DNA of 64,000 bases from Acinetobacter phage vB_AbaSI_3, in sequence record PQ382034.1, one strand, 5' to 3'. Each line of letters starts with the position of its first letter. Position 1 is the first letter of the stretch. A program made the position numbers and the translations under genes. Positions 1 to 49,896 of this stretch are shown here, piece after piece. A model generated the notes under the pieces. The model ran no database searches. It saw only the letters and a program-made list of their open reading frames with translations, and was not told where the DNA came from.

Positions 1-1
1 G

Positions 2-2209
2 TTATACTCCTAATGTTTTGATGATGTCATCTGCGATATCGTCACAGATGCCATACGAAGTTTTCAAAATATAGCTGACCATTGGGTGTTTCTTAACAAG
101 GTCTTCTCTAAATTTCTCAAATACTTCTTTTGCTGCATCCATGTTATTATAGTATGAGTTAAGAGATTTGATAAATTCACTTTGTGCCGGAGTTTCATAA
201 TTAACTCGAATATTCCGAGCAAGTTGAATGGTATTGTTGAATTCAATGAATTCTGGAGTATATGCACCTCCTATGGATCCATAAATCTTATGTAGTTTTT
301 TATTACTAAGTAGGTTATCGTGAATCTTGACACCTGTAGAAACATAACAGTATTCATCTACATTAAAATTATCAACTAGTTTTGTGACATTAGCAAAAAT
401 AAATTCAATCATGCATCTCAAATTTTTATTTGCTAGGACTCGTTTATAGATTGCAGGGCGAACAATATAATACTCACTTACTGCAAACGTTTTTGCCAGT
501 GTCTTGATTCGATGAAGATCCACTCCATCTACAAACTTAAATTCTGCACTCAACGATGTAGGATCGTTGTTATAACTACCTATGCACAGCCCGGATAGTT
601 CAGCAATTTCAGTAGAGGTCAAGTACAAATCTTCAGTCTTATAACGTTTAGTGGCATGGTCAAATTTAACAAGTGACGCATTCGGCGAAGCTGGGCGTTT
701 TTCTCGTGGCGTCTTAGGTCTGTTGGCTTTAGCATTTTCTTCCAATTCTTTACGAATAGGCTCAAGCTCAGAAGTAGTCAAGACTTGCACCGTATCACCT
801 TCATAGATGTCTTTAAACACATCGATAAGCTCTATTTCGCCTGGAATATCCTTACGAACTACAATAATTTCAGTGGATGTTTTAGGATATTTTGCATTAG
901 ACGACATCGCAATGGCTCTAATAGTATCCTTAAGTTTCTTAATGGTAAGCCCTTCATCTACTAGAAAAGTTATTTCTGGACGAGAATATTCGACCAATTC
1001 AGAAAGACGGACTTCTGATACTTTGAAACGGCGCCAAACAGAAATATTGTCAACAACTTTTTTAATTTTTGGCGTATATGGGTCTACTGTGTATACTCGT
1101 GCACGGCTTAACATGTTTGTTAATTTTAATGAATTTACCACTTTTACCGAAGAGTAAAGTTTATCGGTATCCATGCCACCTAAAAATTCAATTTTGTCAC
1201 GTTCAATTGCTTGGAACTTTGCTGAAGGCAATTTGTTTAATGCACGAACCAATGGGCGAGCATATTGAATTTTGCGCAAATCATTTAAGTCTTTTTCCAT
1301 CAGGTCATTATTAAGCTTGTTGACCTTTGCACAAATATTTTTGACAGTGAACTCATCCATCTGCAATTGTTCACGTGAAGGTTGCGGCATCAATTCGTTA
1401 ATGTCAAAATGTACATAAACAACAGATGCAGTAGCACGAAGCCATGAGCATTTCATGCCAGGTGTACCATCGAGTGGATAAACAATATTGCCACAAATCG
1501 CATATACTCCTGGTGGATTTGTGTATTGATTTGATGAAGTCAGGAACATTTCAGGATATTGTGTATATGTTTCGTAGTCACACAAGTGTTTAATATCTAA
1601 CGAAGTGCCACGAATTTCAAATGTTGCCGGATCAAATGGCGTCAATATGTATCGGAGTTCAATGTGCCAAATGTCAATATCATCTAATTTAACTGGAACC
1701 GTTACTTCAATGCCGTTTCGATCGCCATCTTCAAATGGTCCTTCAAAAACTTTCATTAATTGAGGTTCGCCATTCGATAAGGCTGCAGTATAAATTCGAA
1801 CTACGCCTTCATGGTATGATGTTACATTAAACGTATCAGTATATGAGAATGGAGATTTAGCACCTAAGCCGAACCCGCCGATCTGATTACCATCTTCAGT
1901 TTTGAGAGACTTAAAGTATTGAGTATAAATTGTAATCATGTCATCATGGCTTAACCCAGGACCAAAATCTCGTACCACAAATCTTGGATCAAGTTCACTT
2001 GGAGCCTTAATGATGAATTTTTCGGACGAATTGACTAAGCGATGCGCATCTAATGCGTTACAAATTACTTCACGAACTACTGCACGAATTTTATTTTTAT
2101 AGATGCCACTTGACAAAATTTGAAAGGCTTTTGCCGATGTGCTGATAGTAAATGTGTGTGCATCAGAGCTATTACCAAGAATTTTTTCATGTTGTTCATT
2201 GAATTTCAT
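2..2209 (-). CDS. rIIA: rIIA protein; N-terminal GHKL/Bergerat-fold ATPase domain; complete (TAA at 2-4)
   Basis: 735 aa. N-terminus aligns with T4 rIIA (ILGN.S, KIRAVVRE, FIIxxP..LDPRFV.RDFGPG, GGFGLG.KSPFSYTDTF.TSYH). GHKL motifs ExxxNAxDA, DxGxG, GxxGxG present. Position and orientation match T4. Confidence 0.9.
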   Translation of the reverse strand: MKFNEQHEKILGNSSDAHTFTISTSAKAFQILSSGIYKNKIRAVVREVICNALDAHRLVNSSEKFIIKAPSELDPRFVVRDFGPGLSHDDMITIYTQYFKSLKTEDGNQIGGFGLGAKSPFSYTDTFNVTSYHEGVVRIYTAALSNGEPQLMKVFEGPFEDGDRNGIEVTVPVKLDDIDIWHIELRYILTPFDPATFEIRGTSLDIKHLCDYETYTQYPEMFLTSSNQYTNPPGVYAICGNIVYPLDGTPGMKCSWLRATASVVYVHFDINELMPQPSREQLQMDEFTVKNICAKVNKLNNDLMEKDLNDLRKIQYARPLVRALNKLPSAKFQAIERDKIEFLGGMDTDKLYSSVKVVNSLKLTNMLSRARVYTVDPYTPKIKKVVDNISVWRRFKVSEVRLSELVEYSRPEITFLVDEGLTIKKLKDTIRAIAMSSNAKYPKTSTEIIVVRKDIPGEIELIDVFKDIYEGDTVQVLTTSELEPIRKELEENAKANRPKTPREKRPASPNASLVKFDHATKRYKTEDLYLTSTEIAELSGLCIGSYNNDPTSLSAEFKFVDGVDLHRIKTLAKTFAVSEYYIVRPAIYKRVLANKNLRCMIEFIFANVTKLVDNFNVDEYCYVSTGVKIHDNLLSNKKLHKIYGSIGGAYTPEFIEFNNTIQLARNIRVNYETPAQSEFIKSLNSYYNNMDAAKEVFEKFREDLVKKHPMVSYILKTSYGICDDIADDIIKTLGV

Positions 2210-11804: not shown

Positions 11805-12126
11805 TTTGCTTCGCCCTTATTTTCAATACATCATGCAAAACGACTACTTCATTGTACTGGCTCAATGCAGATTCAGGAACATATACTTTAATAGGATCAT
11901 CTACGATTTCATTGACCATACGAGCATTATTGATCTTTTGTGATAGCGATTTGCTAAATTGATCAACCCATTGGTAAACACGAACACCCATGCTGATGCA
12001 TTGACTGTTATAATAAGATTCGCCTTTAAGTCTAATGATTGAGTCACGGACTTCTTCAATGTAATCGAGCAGTTGGACAGCTGCTTTAACTGTTAGTGCT
12101 ATATCAGGTTGCATATTAAAACTCAC
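11797..12126 (-). CDS. hypothetical protein
   Basis: 109 aa. Confidence 0.4.
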   Translation of the reverse strand: MSFNMQPDIALTVKAAVQLLDYIEEVRDSIIRLKGESYYNSQCISMGVRVYQWVDQFSKSLSQKINNARMVNEIVDDPIKVYVPESALSQYNEVVVLHDVLKIRAKQNG

Positions 12127-15969: not shown

Positions 15970-16153
15970 TTCGATGCTCCTTTTGTCATTGATGAACGTT
16001 CACAAAGATAGATAATTGCAAGAGTAGCAAAGAATGCCAAAATAAAAATTGAAAATGTCATATTAATTTACTCATTTAGTTGATAGGACTATAGTATCAA
16101 ACTATGCCTTAGATGTAAATAGCCTGTGTGATTAAATTTTGATCATGTAAATG

Positions 16154-16279
16154 TAAAGCACGCGTGCTTTACAAAATTTTGATGGTATAATGGTTCTACC
16201 GGTTCACCGCTCTAATTATATCTGCCGTTCGGTACAGAATAGCTGCTGCGCAGCCGGCGCACAGCGCCGAAATTAGATG
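16154..16279 (+). repeat. 126-bp GC-rich repeat element, copy 1 (inverted partner at 47533-47660); carries a palindromic TAAAGCAC..GTGCTTTA MotA-box-like motif plus an extended -10 TGgTATAAT
   Basis: The reverse complement of 47533-47660 matches 16154-16279 nearly perfectly. Only the centre of the palindrome differs (gc vs tcgt). Confidence 0.9.
16165..16191 (+). promoter_or_regulatory. middle-promoter-like motif inside repeat copy 1 (TGCTTTA N14 TATAAT), plus strand
   Basis: TGCTTTA at 16165-16171 and TATAAT at 16186-16191, preceded by TG (extended -10). Spacing is 14 nt where T4 middle promoters usually have about 12. Confidence 0.4.
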
Positions 16280-16334
16280 TTTTAATTGTTTAGTTGTTTT
16301 TGATATATCTCGACTGATATTTTTGGACAAAAAT

Positions 16335-16356
16335 AAAGGAGCCATTTGGCTCCTTT
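16335..16356 (-). terminator. intrinsic terminator hairpin after the macrodomain gene
   Basis: AAAGGAGCC-ATTT-GGCTCCTTT stem-loop. On the minus strand it is followed by TTTATTTTTG. Confidence 0.6.
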
Positions 16357-16358
16357 AG

Positions 16359-16802
16359 TTATATGTACAATACATAAATGTTCACGTCTGGCGTTACTTC
16401 GTTAATTATTTCTGCGATCTTCTCCCAGGTTCCACCTGCAATACCGGCGCCAATTTTAGGAATTCCTACTGATTTGCCGGCATATTTTTCATTGATTACA
16501 GTAAATGCCTTTCTGATGCTATCATATAAAACATGTTCAGGACATTTGCCAGGTCTGAATTGAGTATACGCATTAATGATGTCGCCGTTAACAATTTTGG
16601 CGATGCTCACATCGCCGAGCTTGCTCCAATCACCATATTCAGTTTTCTTGTCTGCTTCTAATGCAACAGGAAATGTCTTGCTAATAGAACCTGCAACTCC
16701 GGCTCCCATTGTATGGAAACAGTTGCAACCATGGGCTATCGCATCAAAATCATTATGTTGGAATGCTTCAAGCAAATCACAATATACATATTGCCTAATC
16801 AT
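16359..16802 (-). CDS. macrodomain protein, TARG1/DarG-like (ADP-ribose-removing hydrolase candidate)
   Basis: 147 aa. AIAHGCNC.HTMGAGVAG and VGIPKIGAGIAGG correspond to the TARG1/OARD1 signature blocks (HC.S.DCRMGAGIA and MPRIGCGLD). Confidence 0.8.
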   Translation of the reverse strand: MIRQYVYCDLLEAFQHNDFDAIAHGCNCFHTMGAGVAGSISKTFPVALEADKKTEYGDWSKLGDVSIAKIVNGDIINAYTQFRPGKCPEHVLYDSIRKAFTVINEKYAGKSVGIPKIGAGIAGGTWEKIAEIINEVTPDVNIYVLYI

Positions 16803-17011: not shown

Positions 17012-17192
17012 GTTGTTCCTTATATGCTTTAGTAGCCTCTTCGACTGTCATACCATCCAAAATATTGAGACAGATTCCAAGATCAGTATGCTCTTCAGTA
17101 TCATATGCATGAACTGCATCTAACAGGTCTTGAGAATTACTGATTGTGGTAGCCAAGAAGCTTACTTGTTGTTTAGTTAGTGTTAGTGACAT
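17001..17192 (-). CDS. hypothetical acidic protein
   Basis: 63 aa. Confidence 0.35.
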   Translation of the reverse strand: MSLTLTKQQVSFLATTISNSQDLLDAVHAYDTEEHTDLGICLNILDGMTVEEATKAYKEQHED

Positions 17193-17292
17193 ATCTGTCT
17201 CCTAAAATATTTATTAACAGATTAATTACTAATCTATGCTTTACATCAAAAGTTATAAATAAAATTAAAAAAGCCTTTAAAATGCACCCGCC

Positions 17293-17640
17293 TTAATACA
17301 GGATTAAACTATTGACAATAACCTCTTCTGGTGTCATTCGTGTCATTCTGCCTCTAGAAATTTCACGTAAACGTAATAGTGCAACGCCTTGTCGATCCAT
17401 TTCATGCTCAATAGAGTTCAATCGACGCTGCAGGCTTTGTGCATCAAATCTCATAGTTTTCAATTTCTTTAATGCACTTTCAGCCAAATTAGGTGTTGGT
17501 GAAACGCGAATAATGGCCTTTTGAAGATCAAAAATTCGTGTTTCTAAACTATCGATTTGAGCTCTTAATGCTTGTGCACGTTTCTTGTTGAGTTTGATTT
17601 TGTACATTAAAGTGTTTTTGAGTTGATTAATTTCCATCAC
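17293..17640 (-). CDS. hypothetical coiled-coil protein
   Basis: 115 aa. Confidence 0.4.
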   Translation of the reverse strand: MMEINQLKNTLMYKIKLNKKRAQALRAQIDSLETRIFDLQKAIIRVSPTPNLAESALKKLKTMRFDAQSLQRRLNSIEHEMDRQGVALLRLREISRGRMTRMTPEEVIVNSLILY

Positions 17641-17831
17641 ATTGTGTCCTTAATAATTCGCCATGCTAGTGCCCATGTGCTAAATGTAGTTAATGCAAAT
17701 ACTGCTAATGCGGTATCATTAGGAAATGATCCAGTCATAGCTATGTAAATTTGAGCTATATGAATTGTTAGCCATGATCCACCGCACAAAGCAAATACAG
17801 CGGCTAATGCAATCATCGATTTCATACTCAT
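17637..17831 (-). CDS. hypothetical membrane protein (start trimmed to 17831, ATGA-coupled)
   Basis: The track ORF 17637-17918 overlaps the upstream gene in another frame. The ATG at 17831 overlaps the upstream TGA (ATGA). Two predicted TM helices. Confidence 0.4.
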   Translation of the reverse strand: MSMKSMIALAAVFALCGGSWLTIHIAQIYIAMTGSFPNDTALAVFALTTFSTWALAWRIIKDTM

Positions 17832-18295
17832 ACAGTCACCGATTCTTTGTGCGTATCTTGTTCTACGTTTAAAACGAGATATGTTTGATGAACACCATAG
17901 GGCTTCCAACCTCTGCATTGGCCAAAACCTTTTAGCCTATAGCCCATTGAACCACGAGCTCTGTACATCTTAATATACTTTTCTTTAAGCAAACGTTGCA
18001 ATGCAGGAGATCGTTGTAAATTTACACAATGCTCACGATTGATAGGCAATCTGACGTATTCGCCTTCAACTTGCTGTTTAAAGAACTCTTTATAGTATTT
18101 GTACTGATCGGCATCAGAAATTCCGCCGCCAATAAGCTTTAAAATTTGCATACGTGCTAATCGTTTTGCTTCATATGCGACAAATCGTTCTTCAATTTGT
18201 GGATTCTTTGCACGTACACGATCTTCAAGATTTCCAAACGTTAAAAGTTCTTGATGCTTAAGATCACTTAGTATTTCTGCCAAACTGCTCATCAA
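17828..18295 (-). CDS. hypothetical protein
   Basis: 155 aa. Confidence 0.45.
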   Translation of the reverse strand: MMSSLAEILSDLKHQELLTFGNLEDRVRAKNPQIEERFVAYEAKRLARMQILKLIGGGISDADQYKYYKEFFKQQVEGEYVRLPINREHCVNLQRSPALQRLLKEKYIKMYRARGSMGYRLKGFGQCRGWKPYGVHQTYLVLNVEQDTHKESVTV

Positions 18296-18470
18296 GCAAC
18301 TCCGTAAATTTATCTGCTACCTTAACAACATTTTGAAGGTAATACTTTTCGCCAAATAGTAATGGCGTTTCCAATTTAGCCTTGATAGCTTGTAAGCCAC
18401 CAAGCGCTTTAACCAATTTTACATGCGTGTGGTATTGATATTCGATACCATTAATAGTTAATACAAACAT
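18264..18470 (-). CDS. hypothetical protein
   Basis: 68 aa. Confidence 0.35.
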   Translation of the reverse strand: MFVLTINGIEYQYHTHVKLVKALGGLQAIKAKLETPLLFGEKYYLQNVVKVADKFTELLDEQFGRNTK

Positions 18471-30194: not shown

Positions 30195-30531
30195 CAGTTT
30201 CGATTTTTTCGAGTTGAGTAATTATATACTCAATAAACTCTAAACGCCGTGGATTTGTCCACACTAGGCGATATGATGAATTATATTCTTGTTTGCCTGC
30301 GATAGGATATGCTATGTTACCTTCATAGATTAAGGGCCATGATTTAATAATGCTAATGATGTCAATATTAATATGTGGTAATGCATCTAAATATGCTACA
30401 TTACACACACCCGAAATTGTAATGCTTGTGCCAAATCGTGATTTGAGAGCAACAAGGTCTCCAAAATGATCTTTCATGTAATGAAGACGTTGAATAGTCT
30501 CTTGTAAAATTGCTAATTGATCAGGTTTCAT
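30157..30531 (-). CDS. hypothetical protein
   Basis: 124 aa. Confidence 0.4.
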   Translation of the reverse strand: MKPDQLAILQETIQRLHYMKDHFGDLVALKSRFGTSITISGVCNVAYLDALPHINIDIISIIKSWPLIYEGNIAYPIAGKQEYNSSYRLVWTNPRRLEFIEYIITQLEKIETVAKAYARSLEDE

Positions 30532-35794: not shown

Positions 35795-36913
35795 TTACTC
35801 CAATAATGCCTTTTCCCACATCGCGTACACACGAGATGGATTGTATTGTTCATATAATGCATTAGCACGTGCAACACGTTGTTCATATGTGTCTTCGAAC
35901 TCATTTAATGCTTTAGAATATGCGGCAATAATATCATTAGTTGACATACCTTCTTCAATCCAAACAACTTTAGTTAATGGATCATGTTCAAGTGTTGCAT
36001 GGCTATAACCACGTTTGATGAGTTGAAGTACAGGCACACCTTTCTCAATAGCTTCCAATGAACCGTGTTCAATAGTGCCTGTGTCATGACAAGTGTTAAC
36101 AAGGACTAGCGCTTCGGCTAATGTTGCCTGGATAGTTGCACGCGGAACATCAATATGTACAAAAGGCTCTTTGAGATATTTCTTAGGTGGTGCCCATTGA
36201 CTTGGCAGGAATGCAGCAATTTTATGATGAGATTTACTCATTGCTTCTAAAGCTACATTTGTCTTTCTGAATTTCAAATCATAGCGCTGTGCTGAAACTA
36301 CAACACCATTAGAAGGCAGCACTTTAGGGCGATTTTCGATTAATGTAGCCGGGAAGAAATTATCTGAGATGATGTCATGCTCTTGCCAATAATCAAAATC
36401 AATTGCACCTTTAGCAACTTTGATATTCATTTTTGAATACACTTGTGCTGTAAGGTCTTTAAATGTTTGAGTTGGCACAAGATTCTTGCCGCCATTTTGG
36501 TGAATAAAAACAGCAGTACGCCAAATTGAAACAAGTGTTCGAATACTAGGATCGAGTGGCGTTGCTAAAAGGTTTCGAATTTTAGGTCCTAACCCGAGTT
36601 TGATCAAGCCATTGATAACACCTTTTGCACCTTCAACAGTAACAACTACATCATATTTTGAATGGTCCAATTGTGAAATTTTGTCAATGATTTTGTTACC
36701 GTGTTTGATAGTGTACTTGTCTACAATTGGGTAGTCAATAGATATTGCATTGACTTTATATGGGCCAAAGTTTTCATCACCGAACGCCATGTAATCGATT
36801 TCATGGTGCTTACTCATTGTTTTGATGAAATTCAATTGAACTGATTCTAAGCCACCAGAAATATAATCAGCATTAAAAGTAATAAATCGACATGGAATGT
36901 ATAAAATTTTCAT
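35795..36913 (-). CDS. GT-B fold glycosyltransferase, paralog 1 (candidate hmC-DNA glycosyltransferase)
   Basis: 372 aa. C-terminal E...G.PV-type motif (NTCHDTGTIEHGSLEAIEKGVPVLQL). About 45% identical to the neighbouring paralog. Located between genes 41 and 42, where T4 has beta-gt. Confidence 0.7.
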   Translation of the reverse strand: MKILYIPCRFITFNADYISGGLESVQLNFIKTMSKHHEIDYMAFGDENFGPYKVNAISIDYPIVDKYTIKHGNKIIDKISQLDHSKYDVVVTVEGAKGVINGLIKLGLGPKIRNLLATPLDPSIRTLVSIWRTAVFIHQNGGKNLVPTQTFKDLTAQVYSKMNIKVAKGAIDFDYWQEHDIISDNFFPATLIENRPKVLPSNGVVVSAQRYDLKFRKTNVALEAMSKSHHKIAAFLPSQWAPPKKYLKEPFVHIDVPRATIQATLAEALVLVNTCHDTGTIEHGSLEAIEKGVPVLQLIKRGYSHATLEHDPLTKVVWIEEGMSTNDIIAAYSKALNEFEDTYEQRVARANALYEQYNPSRVYAMWEKALLE

Positions 36914-36947
36914 GTTTCATCTCAAAGAAAGTGTAGTAGTATTTATG

Positions 36948-36965
36948 GAGCCCGAAGGCTCCAGT
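36948..36965 (-). terminator. hairpin between the two GT genes
   Basis: GGAGCC-CGAAG-GCTCC. Confidence 0.4.
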
Positions 36966-36972
36966 TTCAAAG

Positions 36973-38094
36973 TTATTTTAAAACATTTTCCCAGAGTTTG
37001 AAATATGCTTCTTCGTTAAATTTGTTGTAAAGATATTCAGCCCGAGCAACACGTTGTTCATATGTATCTTCAAACTCATTTAATGCTTTAGCATACATCT
37101 CGATTAATTCTTGAGTACTTGTGCCTTCTTCAAATTCAACTCGAACAGTATTAGGGTCGTACTCAAATGTAGCATGGTTGTATCCTTTTTGAATGAGTTG
37201 AAGTACTGGCGTACCTTGAGAAATAGCTTCAAGCGATCCATTTTCTACTGTACCAGTGTTGTGGCACGTATTGACAAGAAGTTTGGCAGTTGAAATTTCT
37301 TTTTGTATGGTTTGGCGTTTGGCATCGATAATGACCCAGTGATCTTTCTCCAGCCATTTTTTGCCAGGTGCCCATTTCGATGGACAGAATGCGATCTTAG
37401 GCCCATCAAATAAATCCATTGCACCGAATGCAACATTAGATTTTCTGAATGCATTGTCAAACCGTTGGGCTTGTACAATATGCCCTTCAGAATGAAGGAC
37501 TTCAGGTTTATTTGCAATCAAAATCGGCGGATAAAATTCATCTGCAATAATATCATGCTTTTGCCAATAATCAAAATCAATGACTTCTGCAGCAATACGT
37601 TCATTCATTTTAGAATAAACCTTTGCAGCTAAATCTTTAAATGTTTGAGTAGGAACGATATTCTTTCCGCCAAGTTTATGGACCATTACTGCATTGTTCC
37701 AGCATTGTACGATACCACGAACTGATGGGTCAAGTGGAGTAGCAAGAATATTACGAACCTTTGAAATTTGTCCGAGCTCTGCTAATGTATTAAGAACCAT
37801 TTTACTGCCTTCAATGATCACAATAGCATCGTACTGGTCCCAGTCTGTGATTTCTTGAAGTTTGTACTTGATTTTATATGCATGTGCGGTAGTGAACTTT
37901 GCGCCAATAGGTTTATCAATTGATAATTCGTTAACTTTAACACTGCCGAAGTTTTCGTCGCCAAATGAAACGTAATCGATATCATGCACTTTTGACAAGT
38001 TGACAATAAAATTATACTGAACCGCTTCAAGACCGCCAGCAACACGATCAATATCAAATGGCACTGAACGGCAAGGTAAGTATAAAATTTTCAT
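36973..38094 (-). CDS. GT-B fold glycosyltransferase, paralog 2
   Basis: Start trimmed to the ATG at 38094 (GGAG Shine-Dalgarno, 1 nt after the upstream TAA). It then begins MKILYLPCR like paralog 1 (MKILYIPCR). Motif NTCHNTGTVENGSLEAISQGTPVLQL. Confidence 0.7.
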   Translation of the reverse strand: MKILYLPCRSVPFDIDRVAGGLEAVQYNFIVNLSKVHDIDYVSFGDENFGSVKVNELSIDKPIGAKFTTAHAYKIKYKLQEITDWDQYDAIVIIEGSKMVLNTLAELGQISKVRNILATPLDPSVRGIVQCWNNAVMVHKLGGKNIVPTQTFKDLAAKVYSKMNERIAAEVIDFDYWQKHDIIADEFYPPILIANKPEVLHSEGHIVQAQRFDNAFRKSNVAFGAMDLFDGPKIAFCPSKWAPGKKWLEKDHWVIIDAKRQTIQKEISTAKLLVNTCHNTGTVENGSLEAISQGTPVLQLIQKGYNHATFEYDPNTVRVEFEEGTSTQELIEMYAKALNEFEDTYEQRVARAEYLYNKFNEEAYFKLWENVLK

Positions 38095-45208: not shown

Positions 45209-46381
45209 TTAAAAGTCAAATAAATCTTCTAATGAAGAACGTTTTTCTGCTTGCATACCTGCAGATTCACACATACCTTCCAAAGGTTTCTTATATGTTT
45301 TTGTAAACAATGACATAACGTCAACATGTTTTAAAACATCTTCACGAATTTCTTTAGGAAGTTCGTTGCCTGATGGCCATGCAATAACTTTGTCGCCAAA
45401 TGGATTTCCAGGTTTCAAAGGCAAGATCATAACTTTATCACCTTCACTAATATCCGGTAAGTTATCGAATGCCTTAATTGCACGTCGATACGTCAAAACA
45501 CCACGAATATGACTAGGACATTTCAATCCAGGGAAGCCATTATCATCATATTTTGCAATGTTATTTGCAGTTCTTACACCTGCAATAACTTTGTAATCAA
45601 GATTTCTAAATTCATTTTCAAATTTCTTGAAATAGTCTTGAAGTGGCTTTTCACCTTCTTGAAGCATGATTCGAATACTTTCTAATAATGCATCTTTAAC
45701 CGCTTTAGGTGTAGATGATTGTTGAGTTTCCATGCCCATGATTTTCAAGTATGGCTCTTTAAAACGAGTACCTTCCATGTCATACACATTTAATGCATAA
45801 CGTTTCTTAGCTCGCCAGAATCCGCCGATGCCGTTAGAACCAAGTGGTGGGCATGCAATAGCTTCACGATCCATGAACATTAATTGCTCATAGTTGTTAA
45901 GATATTCGCACAGTTCTTGGAAGCCTGCATTAATAACCGGTTCGATTTTCTTTGAACCTACTGCATCCAAGAAGTCAACTAATTTTTCAGTTGATGCAAA
46001 TTTTTCAATGCCAACTTTATCAATGAGTGGACTCAATTCAATATACAATGAATCTGTATCACCATAAATTACATACGGATGATTAGTTGTTCCACACATT
46101 TCATTAAGGTATGCATTAATTTTTCGTTCTGTCCATTGAAGGACCAATTGTCCGAAAATAGTAATCGCTTCTGCATTACGAAGATCGTAAAATCTAAAGT
46201 AGATATTGCCGAGTGCCCCATATAATGAGTTAATGAGCAACTTCCGATTAATTTGATTCGTATCACACAAAACAATATAATTTTCACATTCATGCTCAAG
46301 TTCAAGCAATTCTTCTTGTGAAAGTGTTTTGAGATATTCGATTTCGGATTCAGTTAAGTCACGACTAAAATCTAATTTCAT
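45209..46381 (-). CDS. 43: DNA polymerase gp43, C-terminal cistron (43B: fingers/motif B, motif C, thumb)
   Basis: 390 aa. Colinear with T4 gp43 residues about 520-898: NRKLLINSLYGALGN (motif B), YGDTDS (motif C), MDREAI, PLGS.G.GGFW.AKKRYALNVYDME, KIMGMETQQSSTPKAV, and C-terminal SLEDLFDF. Confidence 0.92.
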   Translation of the reverse strand: MKLDFSRDLTESEIEYLKTLSQEELLELEHECENYIVLCDTNQINRKLLINSLYGALGNIYFRFYDLRNAEAITIFGQLVLQWTERKINAYLNEMCGTTNHPYVIYGDTDSLYIELSPLIDKVGIEKFASTEKLVDFLDAVGSKKIEPVINAGFQELCEYLNNYEQLMFMDREAIACPPLGSNGIGGFWRAKKRYALNVYDMEGTRFKEPYLKIMGMETQQSSTPKAVKDALLESIRIMLQEGEKPLQDYFKKFENEFRNLDYKVIAGVRTANNIAKYDDNGFPGLKCPSHIRGVLTYRRAIKAFDNLPDISEGDKVMILPLKPGNPFGDKVIAWPSGNELPKEIREDVLKHVDVMSLFTKTYKKPLEGMCESAGMQAEKRSSLEDLFDF

Positions 46382-46677
46382 ATAAACTCCAAATTGATGG
46401 GATTATTCTATAACATCATAATCAACTGACACTATAGCTTTAATTGTTAGTTCCTTTGAACAGGATTCGCAATTGACTTTGAATTCTTCATCAGCATGTC
46501 TCCAATGCTCAAAGTAATCAGACGTGTCAAGTTCAGAATTGCAGTGTGGGCAGTATATTTCAAACATTTCTGTGCCTCAAAAGGGATATGACAATTATAT
46601 CATATCCCTTATCAAAAGCTTAACTATAATTCAGATTGTATAATGTAATACGAATCACTTTAGGCGTACGTTTATAT

Positions 46678-46896
46678 TCAAAACATCGCATTGATAACTT
46701 CGGTGCCGGCAATTACAGGATTTTTAAACATGATACAACCTGTAACAAATCCGGCTAAAAACAACACCGGAATACAGATTAATAGGGCTACAAAAACTCG
46801 ATACCACAAGCTAACGTATTCACCAATTGATTCACAATTTTCATTTGCTACTTTAATTTGTTCGAAGATATTCATAGGCCTAACTCCCACAGGCAT
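46678..46896 (-). CDS. hypothetical membrane protein (inside the gene 43 insertion)
   Basis: 72 aa with one or two TM helices. Confidence 0.35.
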   Translation of the reverse strand: MPVGVRPMNIFEQIKVANENCESIGEYVSLWYRVFVALLICIPVLFLAGFVTGCIMFKNPVIAGTEVINAMF

Positions 46897-47189
46897 TGGT
46901 TTAATAACTGATTGATTGAACGTTCGTTATGTATAGATTCATTAAGAAGCTGAGCTATAACACGATAATCTGTTTCACTATTGCATCGAGCGTTAAGAAT
47001 TGTTTGTGCATTTGTGCGACACATATCAAACGTTTTGAAGAAACTGTCATAACGAGGCAAACGAATTGCATTTAACACATTAGGTTTCCAAACAACATTG
47101 AACTTGCCATTGACTTCATCAATAAAGAACAACATAGTTTCAATAGATTGAGTATATGTGTACTCTTCGGCCGATGTATAAACTCTCAT
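46872..47189 (-). CDS. hypothetical protein (inside the gene 43 insertion)
   Basis: 105 aa. Confidence 0.4.
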   Translation of the reverse strand: MRVYTSAEEYTYTQSIETMLFFIDEVNGKFNVVWKPNVLNAIRLPRYDSFFKTFDMCRTNAQTILNARCNSETDYRVIAQLLNESIHNERSINQLLNQCLWELGL

Positions 47190-47500
47190 CGACTTACCTC
47201 CATATCAAAATCTACAAATTTAGCTCTACATTCCTGATAGACACTATGCATTAAATCTAACACTCCATAATTGAATTGAGAATTTTCTGATTTCCCAAGC
47301 AGAGCTCGGGAGCGTGCCGCTATTTCTGAATTTATAAATTCTAGAACTTCTTTACCTTGTGGATATCGTAGCATCTTAGGCACGAATTGTGCGTCAATAG
47401 TAATATTACATCTGCCTCTTAACACAGTAGCTATAAATGGATAATATTCTATCCAATGCTCGCCTGTCGAGCTTGATATTACTCTATTTTGTCCATACAT
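47186..47500 (-). CDS. hypothetical protein (inside the gene 43 insertion); start trimmed to the ATG at 47500
   Basis: The track start is TTG at 47530. The ATG at 47500 has a GAGGT Shine-Dalgarno. It lies directly downstream of the promoter face of repeat copy 2. Confidence 0.4.
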   Translation of the reverse strand: MYGQNRVISSSTGEHWIEYYPFIATVLRGRCNITIDAQFVPKMLRYPQGKEVLEFINSEIAARSRALLGKSENSQFNYGVLDLMHSVYQECRAKFVDFDMEVSR

Positions 47501-47532
47501 AATAACCTCGTAATATATCAAATTAATCAAAT

Positions 47533-47660
47533 CATCTAATTTCGGCGCTGTGCGCCGGCTGCGCAGCAGCTATTCTGTACCGAACGGCAGATATAATTAG
47601 AGCGGTGAACCGGTAGAACCATTATACCATCAAAATTTTGTAAAGCACTCGTGTGCTTTA
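47533..47660 (-). repeat. 126-bp GC-rich repeat element, copy 2 (inverted relative to copy 1 at 16154-16279)
   Basis: Reverse complement equals copy 1 except at the palindrome centre. Here the TGCTTTA N14 TATAAT motif faces leftward into the ORF at 47186-47500. Confidence 0.9.
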
Positions 47661-47695
47661 TGAATATAGATCATTTTATGAACACTCAAACCAAA

Positions 47696-47923
47696 TCATA
47701 ACAATTCTTGGATTCTTCTAGATTTATACTGCATAAGTTCGGTACGTGTCATTCCTGAAGTGTCCTGTTCACACTGCGTGTTAACTGTTTTAATCATAAT
47801 GAGGGTATTATGATTTATATTATCTATAGGAAGTTGTCGCCGGTGTGTGTCTGGCGTAACTATTCTGCATGGATATTGCTTTGCGATATCTCTAATACTT
47901 TCATAATATTGCTTAAGTGGCAT
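47696..47923 (-). CDS. hypothetical protein (inside the gene 43 insertion)
   Basis: 75 aa. Confidence 0.35.
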   Translation of the reverse strand: MPLKQYYESIRDIAKQYPCRIVTPDTHRRQLPIDNINHNTLIMIKTVNTQCEQDTSGMTRTELMQYKSRRIQELL

Positions 47924-47994
47924 ATCAAATCTCCATAGATTTTAGAATAATTATATCATAATCAAAAAGCAAAGTAAATATTTTAGACAAAAAT

Positions 47995-48016
47995 AAAGGA
48001 CCCATTTGGGTCCTTT
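47995..48016 (-). terminator. terminator hairpin, structural homolog of the hairpin at 16335-16356
   Basis: AAAGGACCC-ATTT-GGGTCCTTT. It has the same flanks (gacaaaaataAAGG...CCTTTag) as the 16335 copy, with compensatory stem changes. Confidence 0.55.
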
Positions 48017-48029
48017 AGATAAAATGAAA

Positions 48030-48386
48030 TTATACAACGCTATACATTGTAACCGCAATAGGTAGAATTTCATTTGTCAATGTATTAAGACTGCCTCCAG
48101 TGATAGGAGTACCTTGGAAACGATGAACGATACGTTCAATTTCAACAACTTTTCGTTTATTAGTTTCTCGATCACGTGGATCAATTACCAATTTGATATT
48201 ATCATCTTTAAATTCCAGTGCAAGGATCCCAAGAGTAATTTTTGCATCTAACGAACGTGTAGAACGAGTATCAATTACTGGAGCTGCTGTGTTAAATTGT
48301 AATTTAGATTGCTGGATCATAATATCTCTACGTACTTTGTAAGTTGATAGGATTATTATATCAATAACCCTATCACATGTAAACAA
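48030..48386 (-). CDS. hypothetical protein (inside the gene 43 insertion)
   Basis: 118 aa. The start may be the internal Met (MIQQSKL...). Confidence 0.4.
   Translation of the reverse strand: MFTCDRVIDIIILSTYKVRRDIMIQQSKLQFNTAAPVIDTRSTRSLDAKITLGILALEFKDDNIKLVIDPRDRETNKRKVVEIERIVHRFQGTPITGGSLNTLTNEILPIAVTMYSVV
48355..48384 (-). promoter_or_regulatory. early promoter within a palindrome (PeSL-like)
   Basis: Minus strand reads GTTTACatgtgatagggttattgaTATAATaatcctatc. The palindrome is GATAGGAT..ACCCTATC. Confidence 0.55.
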
Positions 48387-48387
48387 A

Positions 48388-49896
48388 TTATTTCATTAAT
48401 TTTTTAATCACTTCGGCATTACGTTTTGCAGCCATCATTTTCTTCTTCCATTCTTTACGTTGGAAGAACACTTTAGTAATTTCTTGTGGAATGATACCTT
48501 GCTTTGTCTTCGAATACATCATACCACTTGGCGAGCATGAGAATTCATTTGAAGGGCTCGGCGCAATCTTATTAATGAAATCGCTAAGTTTAGGCGGCGC
48601 AAATTGTCCTGCAATTGTTTCTGGGCTAATGTTTACTTGGCGAATGATTGACGGATACAGAGATGTTACGTCAAACGACAAAACATATTTGTACGCACCA
48701 GGCACAGGGTTTTTAACATATGCGCCTTCATACGGTTGTCGAACATTTGGCTTAGCTTCCGGTAAAACTAAGTGCTCGGCTTTTAATGAGTTGAAGATAA
48801 TTGCATCCCAAGTTTTCACAGGACTCATTACTGTTGCAATATTCATTCGAGCGTAATAGCCCATTGAAATTGACAGGTTGATAAATCCACGTTTTGCGTC
48901 AATTGCTTGTACACAGTACACATCGACAATGTTATATGAAATATAACGCTGGTGGTTTGATTCACGTAATTTGTCGATTGGACCGTCATATTCTAATTTG
49001 TTGATGCCGGCTTCATATTCTGCAATATAATCGAGTTTATATGATGGCTGTGAAGTAAACGCAAACTTTTTATATAAATCCATGTAATCGAGAATCATGA
49101 TTCCAGAAATATTGAAAATTTCTTTATCTCCATACATGTTTTGAATGACTTTTGACGTTACTTTACCAAAAGGACTTAAACGTTTCATGTTCGAGACACC
49201 AAGAACGTTTTTGATACGATTTACAATATATGGAATATCAAATCCTTCAACGTTCCAACCGGTGAAGATGACAGGAGTTTTTTCTTCCCATAAACGAATG
49301 TATTCTAACAGCATTTCCTTTTCTGTTTCGAATGGCATATACACAACTTTATCTAAAATATGTTGTGGAACTTCATCGCCGCCTTCATCAATTGATTTGC
49401 CTGCAAGAACCGGATCCCACTTTGAAACACGTCCACGTTGAGAGTTCAACAAGTCAAACACGTAGTATTTGTCATCAATAGAATCATAGTGTGTAATTGC
49501 ATCAATTTCATATTTTGCAAAGGTCGGATTCGGGAACTCTCCTGCTGTTACCTCGATGTCACAGTTTGCAACACGAATTGCATTTCTGCTATATGTGATG
49601 TCCTTTTTTCCATACACATCAGAAATATATGCAAGTTTGAAGTCATCCATACCTAAAATTTCTACAATTCCACGTGTCTTTTGCATCCAGTCTTTAGCTT
49701 CACGAATGGAGCTAAAACGTTTAGGAATACATGGCTTGCCATAAATGTCTTTATATTTTGATTCAACGCCTTCTTTGGCATGAATGAACAGTGTAGGCTC
49801 ATATGGAATTTCACGAACTTTTTCGACGCCATTTTCCACATAACGCTCTTGAATAAGGTCGCCAGATTGTTCAACTACTAGATAGAAATTATCCAC
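48388..49896 (-). CDS. 43: DNA polymerase gp43, N-terminal cistron (43A: N-terminal domain, 3'-5' exonuclease, palm motif A)
   Basis: 502 aa. Colinear with T4 gp43 residues 1 to about 520: LGMDDFKLAYISD.YG, VANCDIEVT (Exo I), ITHYDSIDD.YYVFDLLNS, IFTGWN.EGFD.PY (Exo II), RYISYNI.DV (Exo III), FDVTSLYPSIIRQVNISPETI (motif A). It ends before motif B. Confidence 0.92.
   Translation of the reverse strand: MDNFYLVVEQSGDLIQERYVENGVEKVREIPYEPTLFIHAKEGVESKYKDIYGKPCIPKRFSSIREAKDWMQKTRGIVEILGMDDFKLAYISDVYGKKDITYSRNAIRVANCDIEVTAGEFPNPTFAKYEIDAITHYDSIDDKYYVFDLLNSQRGRVSKWDPVLAGKSIDEGGDEVPQHILDKVVYMPFETEKEMLLEYIRLWEEKTPVIFTGWNVEGFDIPYIVNRIKNVLGVSNMKRLSPFGKVTSKVIQNMYGDKEIFNISGIMILDYMDLYKKFAFTSQPSYKLDYIAEYEAGINKLEYDGPIDKLRESNHQRYISYNIVDVYCVQAIDAKRGFINLSISMGYYARMNIATVMSPVKTWDAIIFNSLKAEHLVLPEAKPNVRQPYEGAYVKNPVPGAYKYVLSFDVTSLYPSIIRQVNISPETIAGQFAPPKLSDFINKIAPSPSNEFSCSPSGMMYSKTKQGIIPQEITKVFFQRKEWKKKMMAAKRNAEVIKKLMK

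Follow-up and report, generated by a model that had tools for sequence, protein, structure and literature searches.

A promoter cassette repeated in inverted orientation in Acinetobacter phage vB_AbaSI_3 belongs to a five-copy, T4-type family that may mark replication starts

Why does an Acinetobacter phage carry the same short, GC-rich element twice, in opposite orientations and some 31 kb apart? The question arises from a 64,000-nucleotide stretch of phage vB_AbaSI_3 (PQ382034.1; hereafter the window), in which an initial annotation had marked such a pair and suggested that it could invert the segment between its copies or, alternatively, that it was a mobile promoter/leader cassette or a small structured RNA. 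The near-exact inverted repeat claimed there is real: by letter comparison, positions 16164-16279 on the plus strand and the reverse complement of 47648-47533 agree at all 116 nt, a length that excludes chance, and a repeat search of the window extends the inverted arms to 16159-16300 and 47512-47653 (142 nt, 94% complementary, with 31,211 nt between them). The GC-richness holds as well, at 51% for 16186-16279 and 82% for its two hairpins (16242-16269), against a window average of 36%. Copy 1 (plus strand) faces right, towards a terminator and then the 3' end of the macrodomain gene (16359-16802, minus strand), and copy 2 (47533-47648, minus strand), its exact twin over the 116 nt, faces left into an open reading frame of 104 amino acids (47186-47500, minus strand), both as first described.

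Copy 1 has the layout of a putative MotA-dependent-type middle promoter, TGCTTTA-N14-TATAAT with a TG extension and no -35. Its MotA-box-like TGCTTTA (16166-16172, plus strand) lies 14 nt 5' of TATAAT, and its extended -10, TGGTATAAT, occupies 16183-16191 on the same strand; in copy 2 the corresponding minus-strand positions are 47646-47640 and 47629-47621. Both elements named in the initial annotation are present. Genes for motA and asiA are annotated in relatives; a -35 hexamer is lacking, and a sigma-70 -35/-10 scan of the window does not call the site a promoter. Just 5' of the promoter, TGTAAAGCAC-GC-GTGCTTTACA (16152-16173) forms a palindrome whose right arm includes the TGCTTTA and which a terminator scan of copy 1 also scores as a hairpin with a T-run. 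The perfect palindrome within it, TAAAGCAC-GC-GTGCTTTA (16155-16172), which had been taken as the start of the element in general, is confined to copy 1: copy 2 reads TAAAGCAC-ACGA-GTGCTTTA, and elsewhere in the family and in the AB1I1M-1 lineage the palindrome is absent or weak.

Downstream, a 30-nt core, TATAATGGTTCTACCGGTTCACCGCTCTAA (16186-16215, plus strand), begins with the -10 hexamer and, judged from spacing only, would contain the transcription start at the A at 16198, with the putative start of copy 2 at 47614 on the minus strand. It is followed at 16203-16241 by a pyrimidine-rich arm, an AU-rich AATTATAT, a variable small hairpin and a purine box (..CAGAATAG); in most copies of the family +1 to +25 is pyrimidine-rich (at or below the 5th percentile) and +26 to +50 purine-rich, and the small hairpin recurs in a register that is not constant between lineages. 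Two GC hairpins come next, GCTGC-TGC-GCAGC (16242-16254; 47570-47558 in copy 2) and CGGCGC-ACA-GCGCCG (16255-16269; 47557-47543 in copy 2), and then an AT-rich stretch (16270-16310) of roughly 9-nt periodic (T)AGATG(T/A)(T/A)T-like units, with an AT fraction of 0.62-0.76 that is at about the 90th percentile of the genome and no higher. A predicted bidirectional intrinsic terminator (16334-16357; direct-repeat twin at 47994-48017) would stop transcription from copy 1 after about 160 nt and also serves as the terminator of the macrodomain gene. The open reading frame served by copy 2 has GAGG-N5-ATG (ATG at 47500) behind a leader of about 114 nt and no Pfam match.

The pair in the window is part of something larger. 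A blastn search matched the element at 259 places in 51 records, and complete relatives carry five copies per genome; the two-copy picture arose because the window spans only 64 kb, and the idea that relatives might hold the element just once is contradicted. In AB-Navy97 copies 1 to 5 lie at 16116 (plus), 46913 (minus), 80243 (plus), 118526 (minus) and 149644 (minus): respectively in the srd/macrodomain spacer, in an insert of about 2 kb that splits gp43, in the gp3/gp2 spacer, downstream of gp25 and upstream of rnh. These five sites and their orientation series (+ - + - -) are identical in three lineages, the divergent AB1I1M-1 included, and copies turned up at all five across several Hadassahvirus genomes. 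The gaps in AB-Navy97 are nearly even (30.8, 33.3, 38.3, 31.1 and 32.0 kb; P for the minimum gap 2.3e-5, by a test on the coefficient of variation (CV) 8.5e-5), as are those of AB1I1M-1 (31-40 kb; P 5.8e-5). Real genes with a Shine-Dalgarno (SD) sequence and ATG follow copies 2 (the 104-residue frame), 4 (DUF2685, of the uvsY.-2 family; uvsY itself is not there) and 5 (rnh). Copies 1 and 3 have no open reading frame downstream, run against their flanking genes in every lineage and each have a downstream terminator-like hairpin. The flanks differ among relatives: Kimel, for instance, has an insertion behind copy 3, and the gp43 inserts diverge. Further scans of IMG/VR yielded only two genomes, both already known, and our literature search found no earlier description of the family.

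What unites the copies is their promoter and the sequence just behind it. TGnTATAAT occurs in every copy of every lineage, and the 30-nt core and the AT-rich periodic stretch are likewise common to all five; so is a MotA-box-like site, in the form TGCTTTA in four of the five AB-Navy97 copies but not in that at rnh. Across the five Lazarusvirus copies and the first two of Hadassahvirus the core is free of mismatches, and Hadassahvirus copies 3-5 have a 1-nt deletion; of the ten Lazarusvirus and Hadassahvirus copies, seven have exactly the same 24 nt behind the -10, while in AB1I1M-1 this stretch has changed in all five copies together. The GC hairpins of the initial annotation exist exactly as given but are an optional module, missing from three of the five paralogs. 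The first of them occurs in copies 1 and 2, as well as in AB-Navy71 copy 5, and is lacking in copies 3 and 4; in every lineage the copies without a gene again carry GC-rich 3' hairpin modules. The element is one of the five members of a family of T4-type middle-promoter cassettes. The members evolve in concert: within a genome paralogs are 0.86-0.91 identical, whereas Lazarusvirus and AB1I1M-1, compared at orthologous sites, reach 0.66. The loop of the second GC hairpin is alike in both copies of a genome (ACA here, TGT in AB-Navy97 and Kimel, TTC in Morttis and AbTZA1), a pattern pointing to recombination between copies 1 and 2 in the form of gene conversion, which on this evidence does occur.

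Comparison with T4 gives one of the five sites a known counterpart. In the T4 RefSeq record oriF lies at 115321 in the minus direction, directly 3' of gene 25, with the uvsY transcript as its primer RNA, and copy 4 is, on synteny and direction, the positional and orientational ortholog of T4 PuvsY, the promoter half of oriF; a PuvsY-type cassette has been kept 3' of gp25 though uvsY itself does not lie there. In Ac42 a short homologous leader separates gp25 from uvsY, copies 1 and 3 have a duplicated -10 hexamer, and no equivalent of copy 2 was detected in the gp43 insert. When the T4 genome was scanned with a profile of the Acinetobacter copies, the best match (E 8e-4) fell on the plus strand of the gene 3/gene 2 spacer, the site of copy 3; below significance came the plus strand of the srd/modA spacer (the site of copy 1, about 5 kb from the annotated oriA) and the oriG promoter, at E 0.22 and 0.5. 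A profile of the transcribed part alone finds no significant match in T4, which leaves the promoter, the first 8 nt or so and synteny as the basis of the homology. A strict MotA box with a perfect TATAAT occurs at exactly five T4 sites, 11.9 (plus), 46.5 (minus), 76.0 (plus), 115.4 (minus; oriF) and 153.0 kb (minus; oriG). Their orientation series is that of the Acinetobacter phages, their fractional positions are similar (0.07, 0.28, 0.45, 0.68 and 0.91, against 0.10, 0.28, 0.49, 0.72 and 0.90 here) and their spacing is even at P of about 1e-3. The correspondence has its limits: copy 2 has no syntenic T4 site, copy 5 lies about 2.2 kb off the position equivalent to oriG, the T4 sites that correspond to copies 1-3 lie 3-12 kb away from oriA, oriC and oriE as mapped, and oriA and oriE are annotated in the minus direction while copies 1 and 3 are plus. 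Four T4 promoters share a start motif, TATAATG(A/G)(A/G/T)TCTAAG(T/C)CC, and no prior description of the antisense promoters at srd/modA and 3/2 was found in the literature.

With one fixed site matching T4 oriF, the family is more likely to mark replication-start promoters than the ends of an invertible segment, and the reading preferred here, held tentatively and at a little less than even confidence, is that the cassettes are origin-type middle promoters making short primer or R-loop transcripts. RNA polymerase modified by MotA/AsiA would at middle times fire a short transcript, at copy 1 the RNA of about 160 nt that runs to the bidirectional terminator, which would stay as an R-loop in the downstream AT-rich stretch and prime the leading strand, as at T4 oriF and oriG. 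Copies 2, 4 and 5 would double as promoters of the next gene, as T4 PuvsY does for uvsY, and five evenly spaced starts would allow quick copying of a 165-kb genome. Within a lineage the copies could be kept identical by gene conversion, by a lineage-specific factor that acts on their first 25 nt, or by the two together. In T4, minimal oriF and oriG are units of about 100 bp consisting of a MotA-dependent promoter and a downstream unwinding element, with an R-loop as primer (PMC3016281; PMC2988021). The cassette resembles them in size, in its MotA-box-type promoter with a sigma-70-like -10 and no -35, in a predicted transcript that serves either as mRNA (T4 uvsY; copies 2, 4 and 5) or as antisense non-coding RNA (T4 oriG; copies 1 and 3), in the exact position and direction of copy 4 and in a number of about five per genome at similar fractional positions.

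It is worth noting, however, that the likeness to T4 is incomplete. Firstly, R-loop formation in T4 is reported to need no specific sequence, and the origins there to have no common motif (PMC3016281) and no need of a specific downstream sequence, whereas some 90 nt are nearly identical in all five cassettes and evolve in concert; that the initial transcribed sequence is so strictly conserved hints at a different or a further role. Secondly, the first 60 nt are GC-containing and hairpin-forming: the AT fraction is 0.40-0.63 over +1 to +60 (0.40-0.50 in copies 1 and 2) and 0.62-0.80 over +61 to +150, against a genome mean of 0.63 and a 90th percentile of 0.725. The first 60 nt are thus not AT-rich and the downstream stretch gets no further than about the 90th percentile, so that no classical unwinding element stands out. 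GC and AT skew give no signal around copies 1 and 2, where the direction of transcription dominates. A structured, promoter-driven transcript that would persist as a hybrid primer also recalls origins of the ColE1 RNA II and mitochondrial light-strand promoter (LSP) type, an analogy cited for T4 (PMC3016281); unlike these, the cassette offers no evidence of RNase H processing sites, G-rich hybrid blocks or an antisense copy-number RNA, and the 5' part of its RNA is pyrimidine-rich.

The strongest alternative, which we judge unlikely though of appreciable weight, is a co-regulated promoter/leader regulon, in which the conserved initial transcribed region and its hairpin would be a binding or pause site for a phage factor controlling elongation, termination or translation; such a factor may act on DNA, on the paused polymerase or on the 5' end of the nascent RNA, and copies 1 and 3 may be its gene-less, antisense members. 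The genes behind copies 2, 4 and 5 suit this reading, as does the homologous unit of Ac42 and T4, which is simply the uvsY leader with its purine box next to the SD sequence. A joint shift of the 24 nt in AB1I1M-1, against their invariance in most other copies, is what co-evolution with a trans-acting factor predicts, and T4 has its own shared start motif. An AT-rich, -10-like stretch at about +17 to +24 and the duplicated -10 of Ac42 resemble, as we read them, sigma-dependent promoter-proximal pause sites. A regulon nevertheless leaves unexplained the even spacing, the conserved orientation series and the retention of two gene-less copies in every lineage; no candidate factor was identified, the element matches no Rfam cis-regulatory family and its folding z-scores are weak.

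The family might instead encode five paralogous small non-coding or 5'-UTR-derived RNAs whose pyrimidine-rich 5' region acts in trans on host or phage targets, a reading that appears improbable. Copies 1 and 3 do have a promoter of their own, a terminator-like hairpin and no open reading frame, the GC-rich 3' hairpins are those that recur in gene-less copies, concerted evolution of the 5' region would suit a shared target, and copy 2 does not conserve the overlapping frame of 49 amino acids found in the annotation of some relatives. Multi-copy small RNA families such as Qrr1-5 combine several paralogs, an identical 5' region, an own promoter and a terminator. In contrast to these, three of the cassettes are mRNA leaders, their even spacing has no small-RNA rationale, and the phage genomes hold no site complementary to the 5' region at up to three mismatches besides the copies themselves. 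Folding is no more stable than that of shuffled sequences (z-scores -1.6, -1.5, -0.8, +0.4, -0.9 and -2.0), minimum free energy (MFE) structures differ among the copies, and covariation is ambiguous. On account of the weak z-scores and unlike structures, no conserved structured RNA is claimed. The alternative offered by the initial annotation, a mobile promoter/leader cassette or a structured small RNA, nevertheless comes close to the result: a non-coding cassette that bears a promoter and some 90-150 transcribed nucleotides, with a predicted fold that is not unusually stable. A helix between the pyrimidine and purine arms does show apparent compensatory changes (CUCU/GGAG, UUCC/GGAA, UCCC/GGGG; CUUCCAUUC/GAAUGGAAG in T4), but the helix changes register from one lineage to another, and base composition alone could account for it.

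Database searches place the element in no known RNA class. Rfam 15 gave zero matches in the window at the gathering threshold, and a permissive scan of Kimel copy 1 none inside the element, two sub-gathering hits (E 1.2 and 5) being centred on the downstream terminator and touching the element's last 11 nt or so; the window search found no tRNA or tmRNA. Matches of the GC-hairpin sequence in bacterial genomes were chance ones in high-GC taxa only, none in Acinetobacter, and are uninformative. A resemblance to CRISPR repeats or RNA anti-CRISPRs (GTTCAC...CTGCCG..., seen by eye) was dropped because a proper repeat stem is missing and the copies differ in this region.

More improbable still is a mobile or selfish cassette of the PeSL/PmSL type, spread and homogenised by recombination, with shuffled modules and no dedicated function. 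PmSLs have a Mot box and a -10, may be followed by an SD sequence and start codon, and serve as recombination substrates (Comeau 2014, PMC4122927; Arbiol 2010, PMC2839356); PeSLs, with a terminator stem-loop 5' of a promoter, occur in tens of copies in hyperplastic regions and at indel boundaries (PMC2839356; PMC4122927). The cassette shares with them a repeated promoter-plus-stem-loop unit, and copy 2 within the gp43 insert, the variable flanks, the evident gene conversion and, at copy 1, an upstream palindrome overlapping the MotA-like box, as in PmSLs (PMC4122927), all fit this reading. There are, however, just five copies, two of them gene-less, at evenly spaced sites and with a conserved transcribed part of 100-150 nt, whereas PeSLs are numerous and clustered; the window's actual PeSL-like family (D1, nine copies) is another sequence. 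Sites and orientations are the same down to 66% element identity, with syntenic spacers in Ac42 and T4, and such constancy across distant lineages argues for ancient, stable placement rather than mobility.

Barely credible, lastly, is the inversion first envisaged, in which copies 1 and 2 would flip the 31-kb segment between them and generate genome isomers: an inverted repeat perfect over 116 nt would permit it, the phage being highly recombinogenic and gene conversion demonstrable between the arms, but 1.5-kb queries spanning each junction (records with less than 80% coverage being divergent or unrelated) found no hybrid junction in the records examined, with every relative aligning across them collinear (48 at copy 1, 37 at copy 2) and no isomer among about 50 assemblies, the orientation is kept in three lineages, and crossovers within a five-copy set of mixed orientations would mostly be deleterious.

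Returning to origin-type promoters, a bolder form of that reading, which we consider doubtful, would make the five cassettes the complete sequence-defined replicator set and T4's five promoters with a Mot box and perfect TATAAT its true initiation sites, including the never-defined oriA, oriC and oriE, with selection acting on how evenly the sites are spaced and how they are oriented, not on gene context, and a lineage-specific factor reading the first 25 nt in the Acinetobacter lineages. The plasmid screens that defined T4 origins reportedly yielded only oriF and oriG. T4 is the textbook system of transcript-primed origins, yet these two alone are sequence-defined; five near-identical, evenly placed cassettes that include an oriF ortholog would offer an easily mutable candidate set for all the origins of a T4-like phage, and the same pattern singles out three further T4 promoters as candidates. 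Should the origin reading prove wrong, the family would still represent an unusual concerted evolution of a promoter together with its initial transcribed sequence, implying a factor that acts at or just after initiation. The relatives infect Acinetobacter baumannii, several of them being therapeutic candidates, and knowledge of their replication starts and strongest middle promoters would be useful for engineering.

The repeated element of Acinetobacter phage vB_AbaSI_3 is real and of more interest than a local duplication: judged by its sequence, it belongs to an ancient family of putative MotA-type promoter cassettes that occupy five evenly spaced sites and evolve in concert, the T4 oriF ortholog among them. 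The initial annotation had described a GC-rich inverted repeat in AT-rich DNA, and sequence comparison bears this out, with 116 nt of exact inverted identity between copy 1 (16164-16279) and copy 2 (47648-47533), fainter similarity reaching 142 nt by repeat search and alignment, and a GC content of 51% in the element and 82% in its two hairpins vs 36% in the window. The palindrome placed at its start (16152-16173) is perfect in copy 1 only. TGCTTTA (16166-16172, +), a TATAAT-type -10 region (TGGTATAAT, 16183-16191, +) and two adjoining GC hairpins (16242-16254 and 16255-16269) are all present as described; there is no -35 hexamer at the element, and a plain sigma-70 scanner therefore misses the promoter site. 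The proposed directions also stand: copy 1 points rightward, facing both the macrodomain gene's 3' end (minus strand) and a bidirectional terminator at 16334-16357, and copy 2 leftward, into a 104-aa ORF (ATG at 47500). A 49-aa ORF opposite copy 1, annotated in some relatives, has no counterpart at copy 2, and the element is therefore regarded as non-coding. The bidirectional terminator, an intrinsic one (AAAGGAGCC-ATTT-GGCTCCTTT), is present as a direct repeat (90%) at 16321-16361, just past copy 1, and at 47981-48021, ~330 bp upstream of copy 2.

The window covers the opening 64 kb of a T4-like Acinetobacter phage whose nearest relatives, AB-Navy97, Stupor and Kimel, are all Lazarusvirus. 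Used as a blastn query, copy 1 matched 259 places in 51 records (~5 per genome), and with about five copies in each relative the possibility of a single occurrence, and hence a local duplication of no consequence, can be set aside. In the AB-Navy97 genome, pieced together from four fetched parts, copies placed by the position of their TATAAT total five: copy 1 at 16116 (+) in the spacer between the srd-like and macrodomain genes, copy 2 at 46913 (-) within a ~2-kb insert splitting DNA polymerase gp43, copy 3 at 80243 (+) in the gp3/gp2 spacer, copy 4 at 118526 (-) directly downstream of gp25, and copy 5 at 149644 (-) upstream of rnh in the rnh/gene 34 spacer. The window's own gp43 (45209-49896, minus strand; C part 45209..46381, N part 48388..49896) is likewise split by a ~2-kb insert, in which copy 2 is accompanied by six small ORFs. 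GenBank relatives label it 'interrupted by intron'; against this, no Rfam intron was found, each half is its own ORF, and the Ac42 annotation gives a split 43A/43B. Common to all five copies is AAAATTTTGATG(G/T)TATAATGGTTCTACCGGTTCACCGCTCTAATTATAT, after which come a small variable hairpin, with a purine box (..GGAGAAGATAG) at its end, and, 3' of that box, an AT-rich stretch of (T)AGATGTAT units at ~9-nt period. Only copies 1 and 2 carry the 27-nt insert that makes up the two GC hairpins; copy 5 of AB-Navy71 has one hairpin. No Lazarusvirus copy departs at any position from the 30-nt core TATAATGGTTCTACCGGTTCACCGCTCTAA, nor do Hadassahvirus copies 1 and 2, and Hadassahvirus copies 3-5 carry a 1-nt deletion relative to it. 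The periodic (T)AGATG(T/A)AT stretch 3' of every copy (window 16270-16310; 30290-30330 of sequence L006; copies 4 and 5 in L007, the sequence whose 17133-18388 is AB-Navy97 117133-118388) yields two-codon mini-ORFs (AUG UUU UAA, AUG AUU UGA, AUG AUA UAG and others), most without a convincing SD; AUG AUA UAG resembles the bar minigenes of lambda. Other repeats occur in the window: family D1, separate from the element family, has nine members (2448, 10723, 19562, 19884, 21075, 21511, 26951, 31517 and 48335), each a T4-early-type promoter, GTTTAC-N17-TATAAT (minus-strand reading), overlapping a stem-loop, and appears akin to the PeSL cassettes known from other T4-like phages; two adjoining paralogous genes of ~1.1 kb, 74-77% identical in DNA and hypothetical in relatives' annotation, lie at 35864-37693 (repeat families D5 and D7).

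A more distant phage, AB1I1M-1, has exactly five copies, their sites and orientations matching those of AB-Navy97. Its transcribed part has diverged to TATAATGGTTCTACCCCCTACCCTTCCAATATTATATTTACTGCCGGAAAAGAATAGG, a lineage-specific version common to 5/5 of its copies; over the 52 nt after the -10, paralogs within a genome are 0.86-0.91 identical and orthologous sites between the two lineages 0.66. The hairpin-2 loop is ACA in both window copies (16261-16263 and 47551-47549); in AB-Navy97 and Kimel both copies have its reverse complement, TGT, and in Morttis and AbTZA1 both have TTC. Being the same within a phage and different between phages, the loop indicates that copies are homogenised by ongoing gene conversion, and its pattern marks gene conversion of very recent date, or else palindrome flipping, in the two inverted paralogs. 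Neighbouring copies in AB-Navy97 are 30.8, 33.3, 38.3, 31.1 and 32.0 kb apart; the AB1I1M-1 gaps are 34.9, 31.3, 39.5, 30.7 and 31.9 kb. Five points placed at random on a circle would have so large a minimum gap with a probability of 2.3e-5 (AB-Navy97) and 5.8e-5 (AB1I1M-1), for a pattern noticed post hoc and in two genomes that, being syntenic, constitute one evolutionary observation.

In T4, minimal oriF and oriG (~100 bp) consist of a MotA-dependent middle promoter (PuvsY, P34i) and an A+T-rich unwinding element, the transcript forming an R-loop that primes the leading strand, and about five origins are active, without a common motif (PMC3016281, PMC2988021); the five copies here, in contrast, share sequence. 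oriF (T4 RefSeq 115321, minus direction) sits directly downstream of gene 25 and uses the uvsY transcript as its primer RNA, and oriG (152947, minus direction) lies antisense inside gene 34. Copy 4 has exactly the position and direction of oriF. The gp25-uvsY spacer of Ac42, more basal in the same subfamily, is TATAATTGGTTCACCAGGTTCCCTCCCATATATTTTCAGGCGGGGAAGATAGATAGGAGTTCTAATG, recognisably the cassette unit again. uvsY stands at the gp25 site in Ac42 and T4; the Lazarus, Hadassah and AB1I1M-1 lineages keep the cassette downstream of gp25 without uvsY at that place, the first gene there (region AB-Navy97 117133-118388) being DUF2685 (uvsY.-2 family), and the next four ORFs have no UvsY Pfam match.

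A profile of the Acinetobacter copies was compared with the whole T4 genome. Ranked among T4 matches, the first (E 8e-4) falls in the gene 3/gene 2 spacer (+) and so agrees with copy 3 in site and orientation; the second (E 1e-3) is a minus-strand match at 53.3 kb; the fourth (E 0.22), in the srd/modA spacer (+), agrees in both respects with copy 1; and the oriG promoter comes fifth (E 0.5). T4 also repeats a start motif of its own, TGGTATAATG(A/G)(A/G/T)TCTAAG(T/C)CC, at 11885+, 53337-, 75988+ and 115383- (NC_000866); complete T4-like contigs in IMG/VR have four such sites each. Two of the four in T4 (srd/modA and gene 3/gene 2 spacers) are plus-strand promoters against all neighbouring genes, and the gene 3/2 copy contains a perfect 9-bp helix, CUUCCAUUC/GAAUGGAAG. 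A stricter objective criterion (TGCTT[TC]A-N11-14, then exact TATAAT) returns exactly five T4 sites, at 11.9+, 46.5-, 76.0+, 115.4- (oriF) and 153.0- (oriG) kb, of which 46453(-) and 153023(-) are additional to the start-motif sites. The orientation series + - + - - is found in both this set and AB-Navy97, at fractional positions of 0.07, 0.28, 0.45, 0.68 and 0.91 in T4 (spacing P about 1e-3) and 0.10, 0.28, 0.49, 0.72 and 0.90 in AB-Navy97. In Ac42 the copy-1, 3, 4 and 5 sites are occupied (0.10, 0.50, 0.71, 0.91), and no copy-2 equivalent was found in its gp43 insert. Ac42 copies 1 and 3 (HM032710, ~16276-16375 and ~83616-83750, both +) have a duplicated -10 hexamer, TATAATGCCTATAATGCC and TACAATGCTTCTACAATGCT; common to both is a 3' module, GTGAAACTCGCGCAGCGATAATCG, that includes a small GC hairpin.

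The top-ranked reading, held tentatively, is that the copies may be origin-type primer promoters. Against it, the likeness to T4 is confined to the promoter and first ~8 nt, no T4 match is obtained with a profile limited to the transcribed part, the initial 60 nt of the transcript lack AT-richness and the later AT-rich stretch reaches only the ~90th percentile; skew analysis around the copies gave no information on an origin. Annotated oriA (T4 RefSeq 16763), oriE (79355) and oriC are 3-12 kb away from the T4 sites that match copies 1-3, and oriA and oriE are annotated in the direction opposite to copies 1 and 3. T4 origins are said to need no specific downstream sequence (PMC3016281); taken with first 24 nt that are invariant and jointly replaced in AB1I1M-1, this suggests a lineage-specific factor acting there on DNA, paused polymerase or nascent RNA, although the invariance could reflect nothing beyond homogenisation.

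Next, and less probable, is a co-regulated promoter/leader regulon: an SD and ATG of real genes follow copies 2, 4 and 5 (the 104-aa ORF, the DUF2685/uvsY.-2 homolog and rnh). Copies 1 and 3 lead to no ORF, run antisense to their neighbours and end at hairpins. That the copies encode an sRNA family is doubtful. The RNA-like strand is pyrimidine-rich at +1..25 and purine-rich at +26..50, and a pyrimidine-arm/purine-arm helix recurs, its register shifting between lineages; no Rfam family matches the element, folding z-scores run from +0.4 to -2.0 with MFE structures unlike between copies, no trans target was found in phage genomes, and the RNA-level evidence is weak. A selfish PmSL-like cassette is improbable. 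Least credible is the 31-kb inversion switch suggested in the initial annotation: cassette orientations are constant across lineages, and with 1.5-kb queries spanning each junction (records of <80% coverage are divergent or unrelated) junctions are collinear in 48 relatives at copy 1 and 37 at copy 2, and no hybrid junction or inversion isomer was seen in the records examined, assemblies that could miss low-frequency population isomers. Recombination between the copies is real, appearing as gene conversion.

No earlier description of the cassette family was found in the literature searched. The transcript-primed T4 origin promoter is a kind already known; its sequence-identical, evenly spaced multi-copy form, together with the matching T4 pattern, appears to be new.
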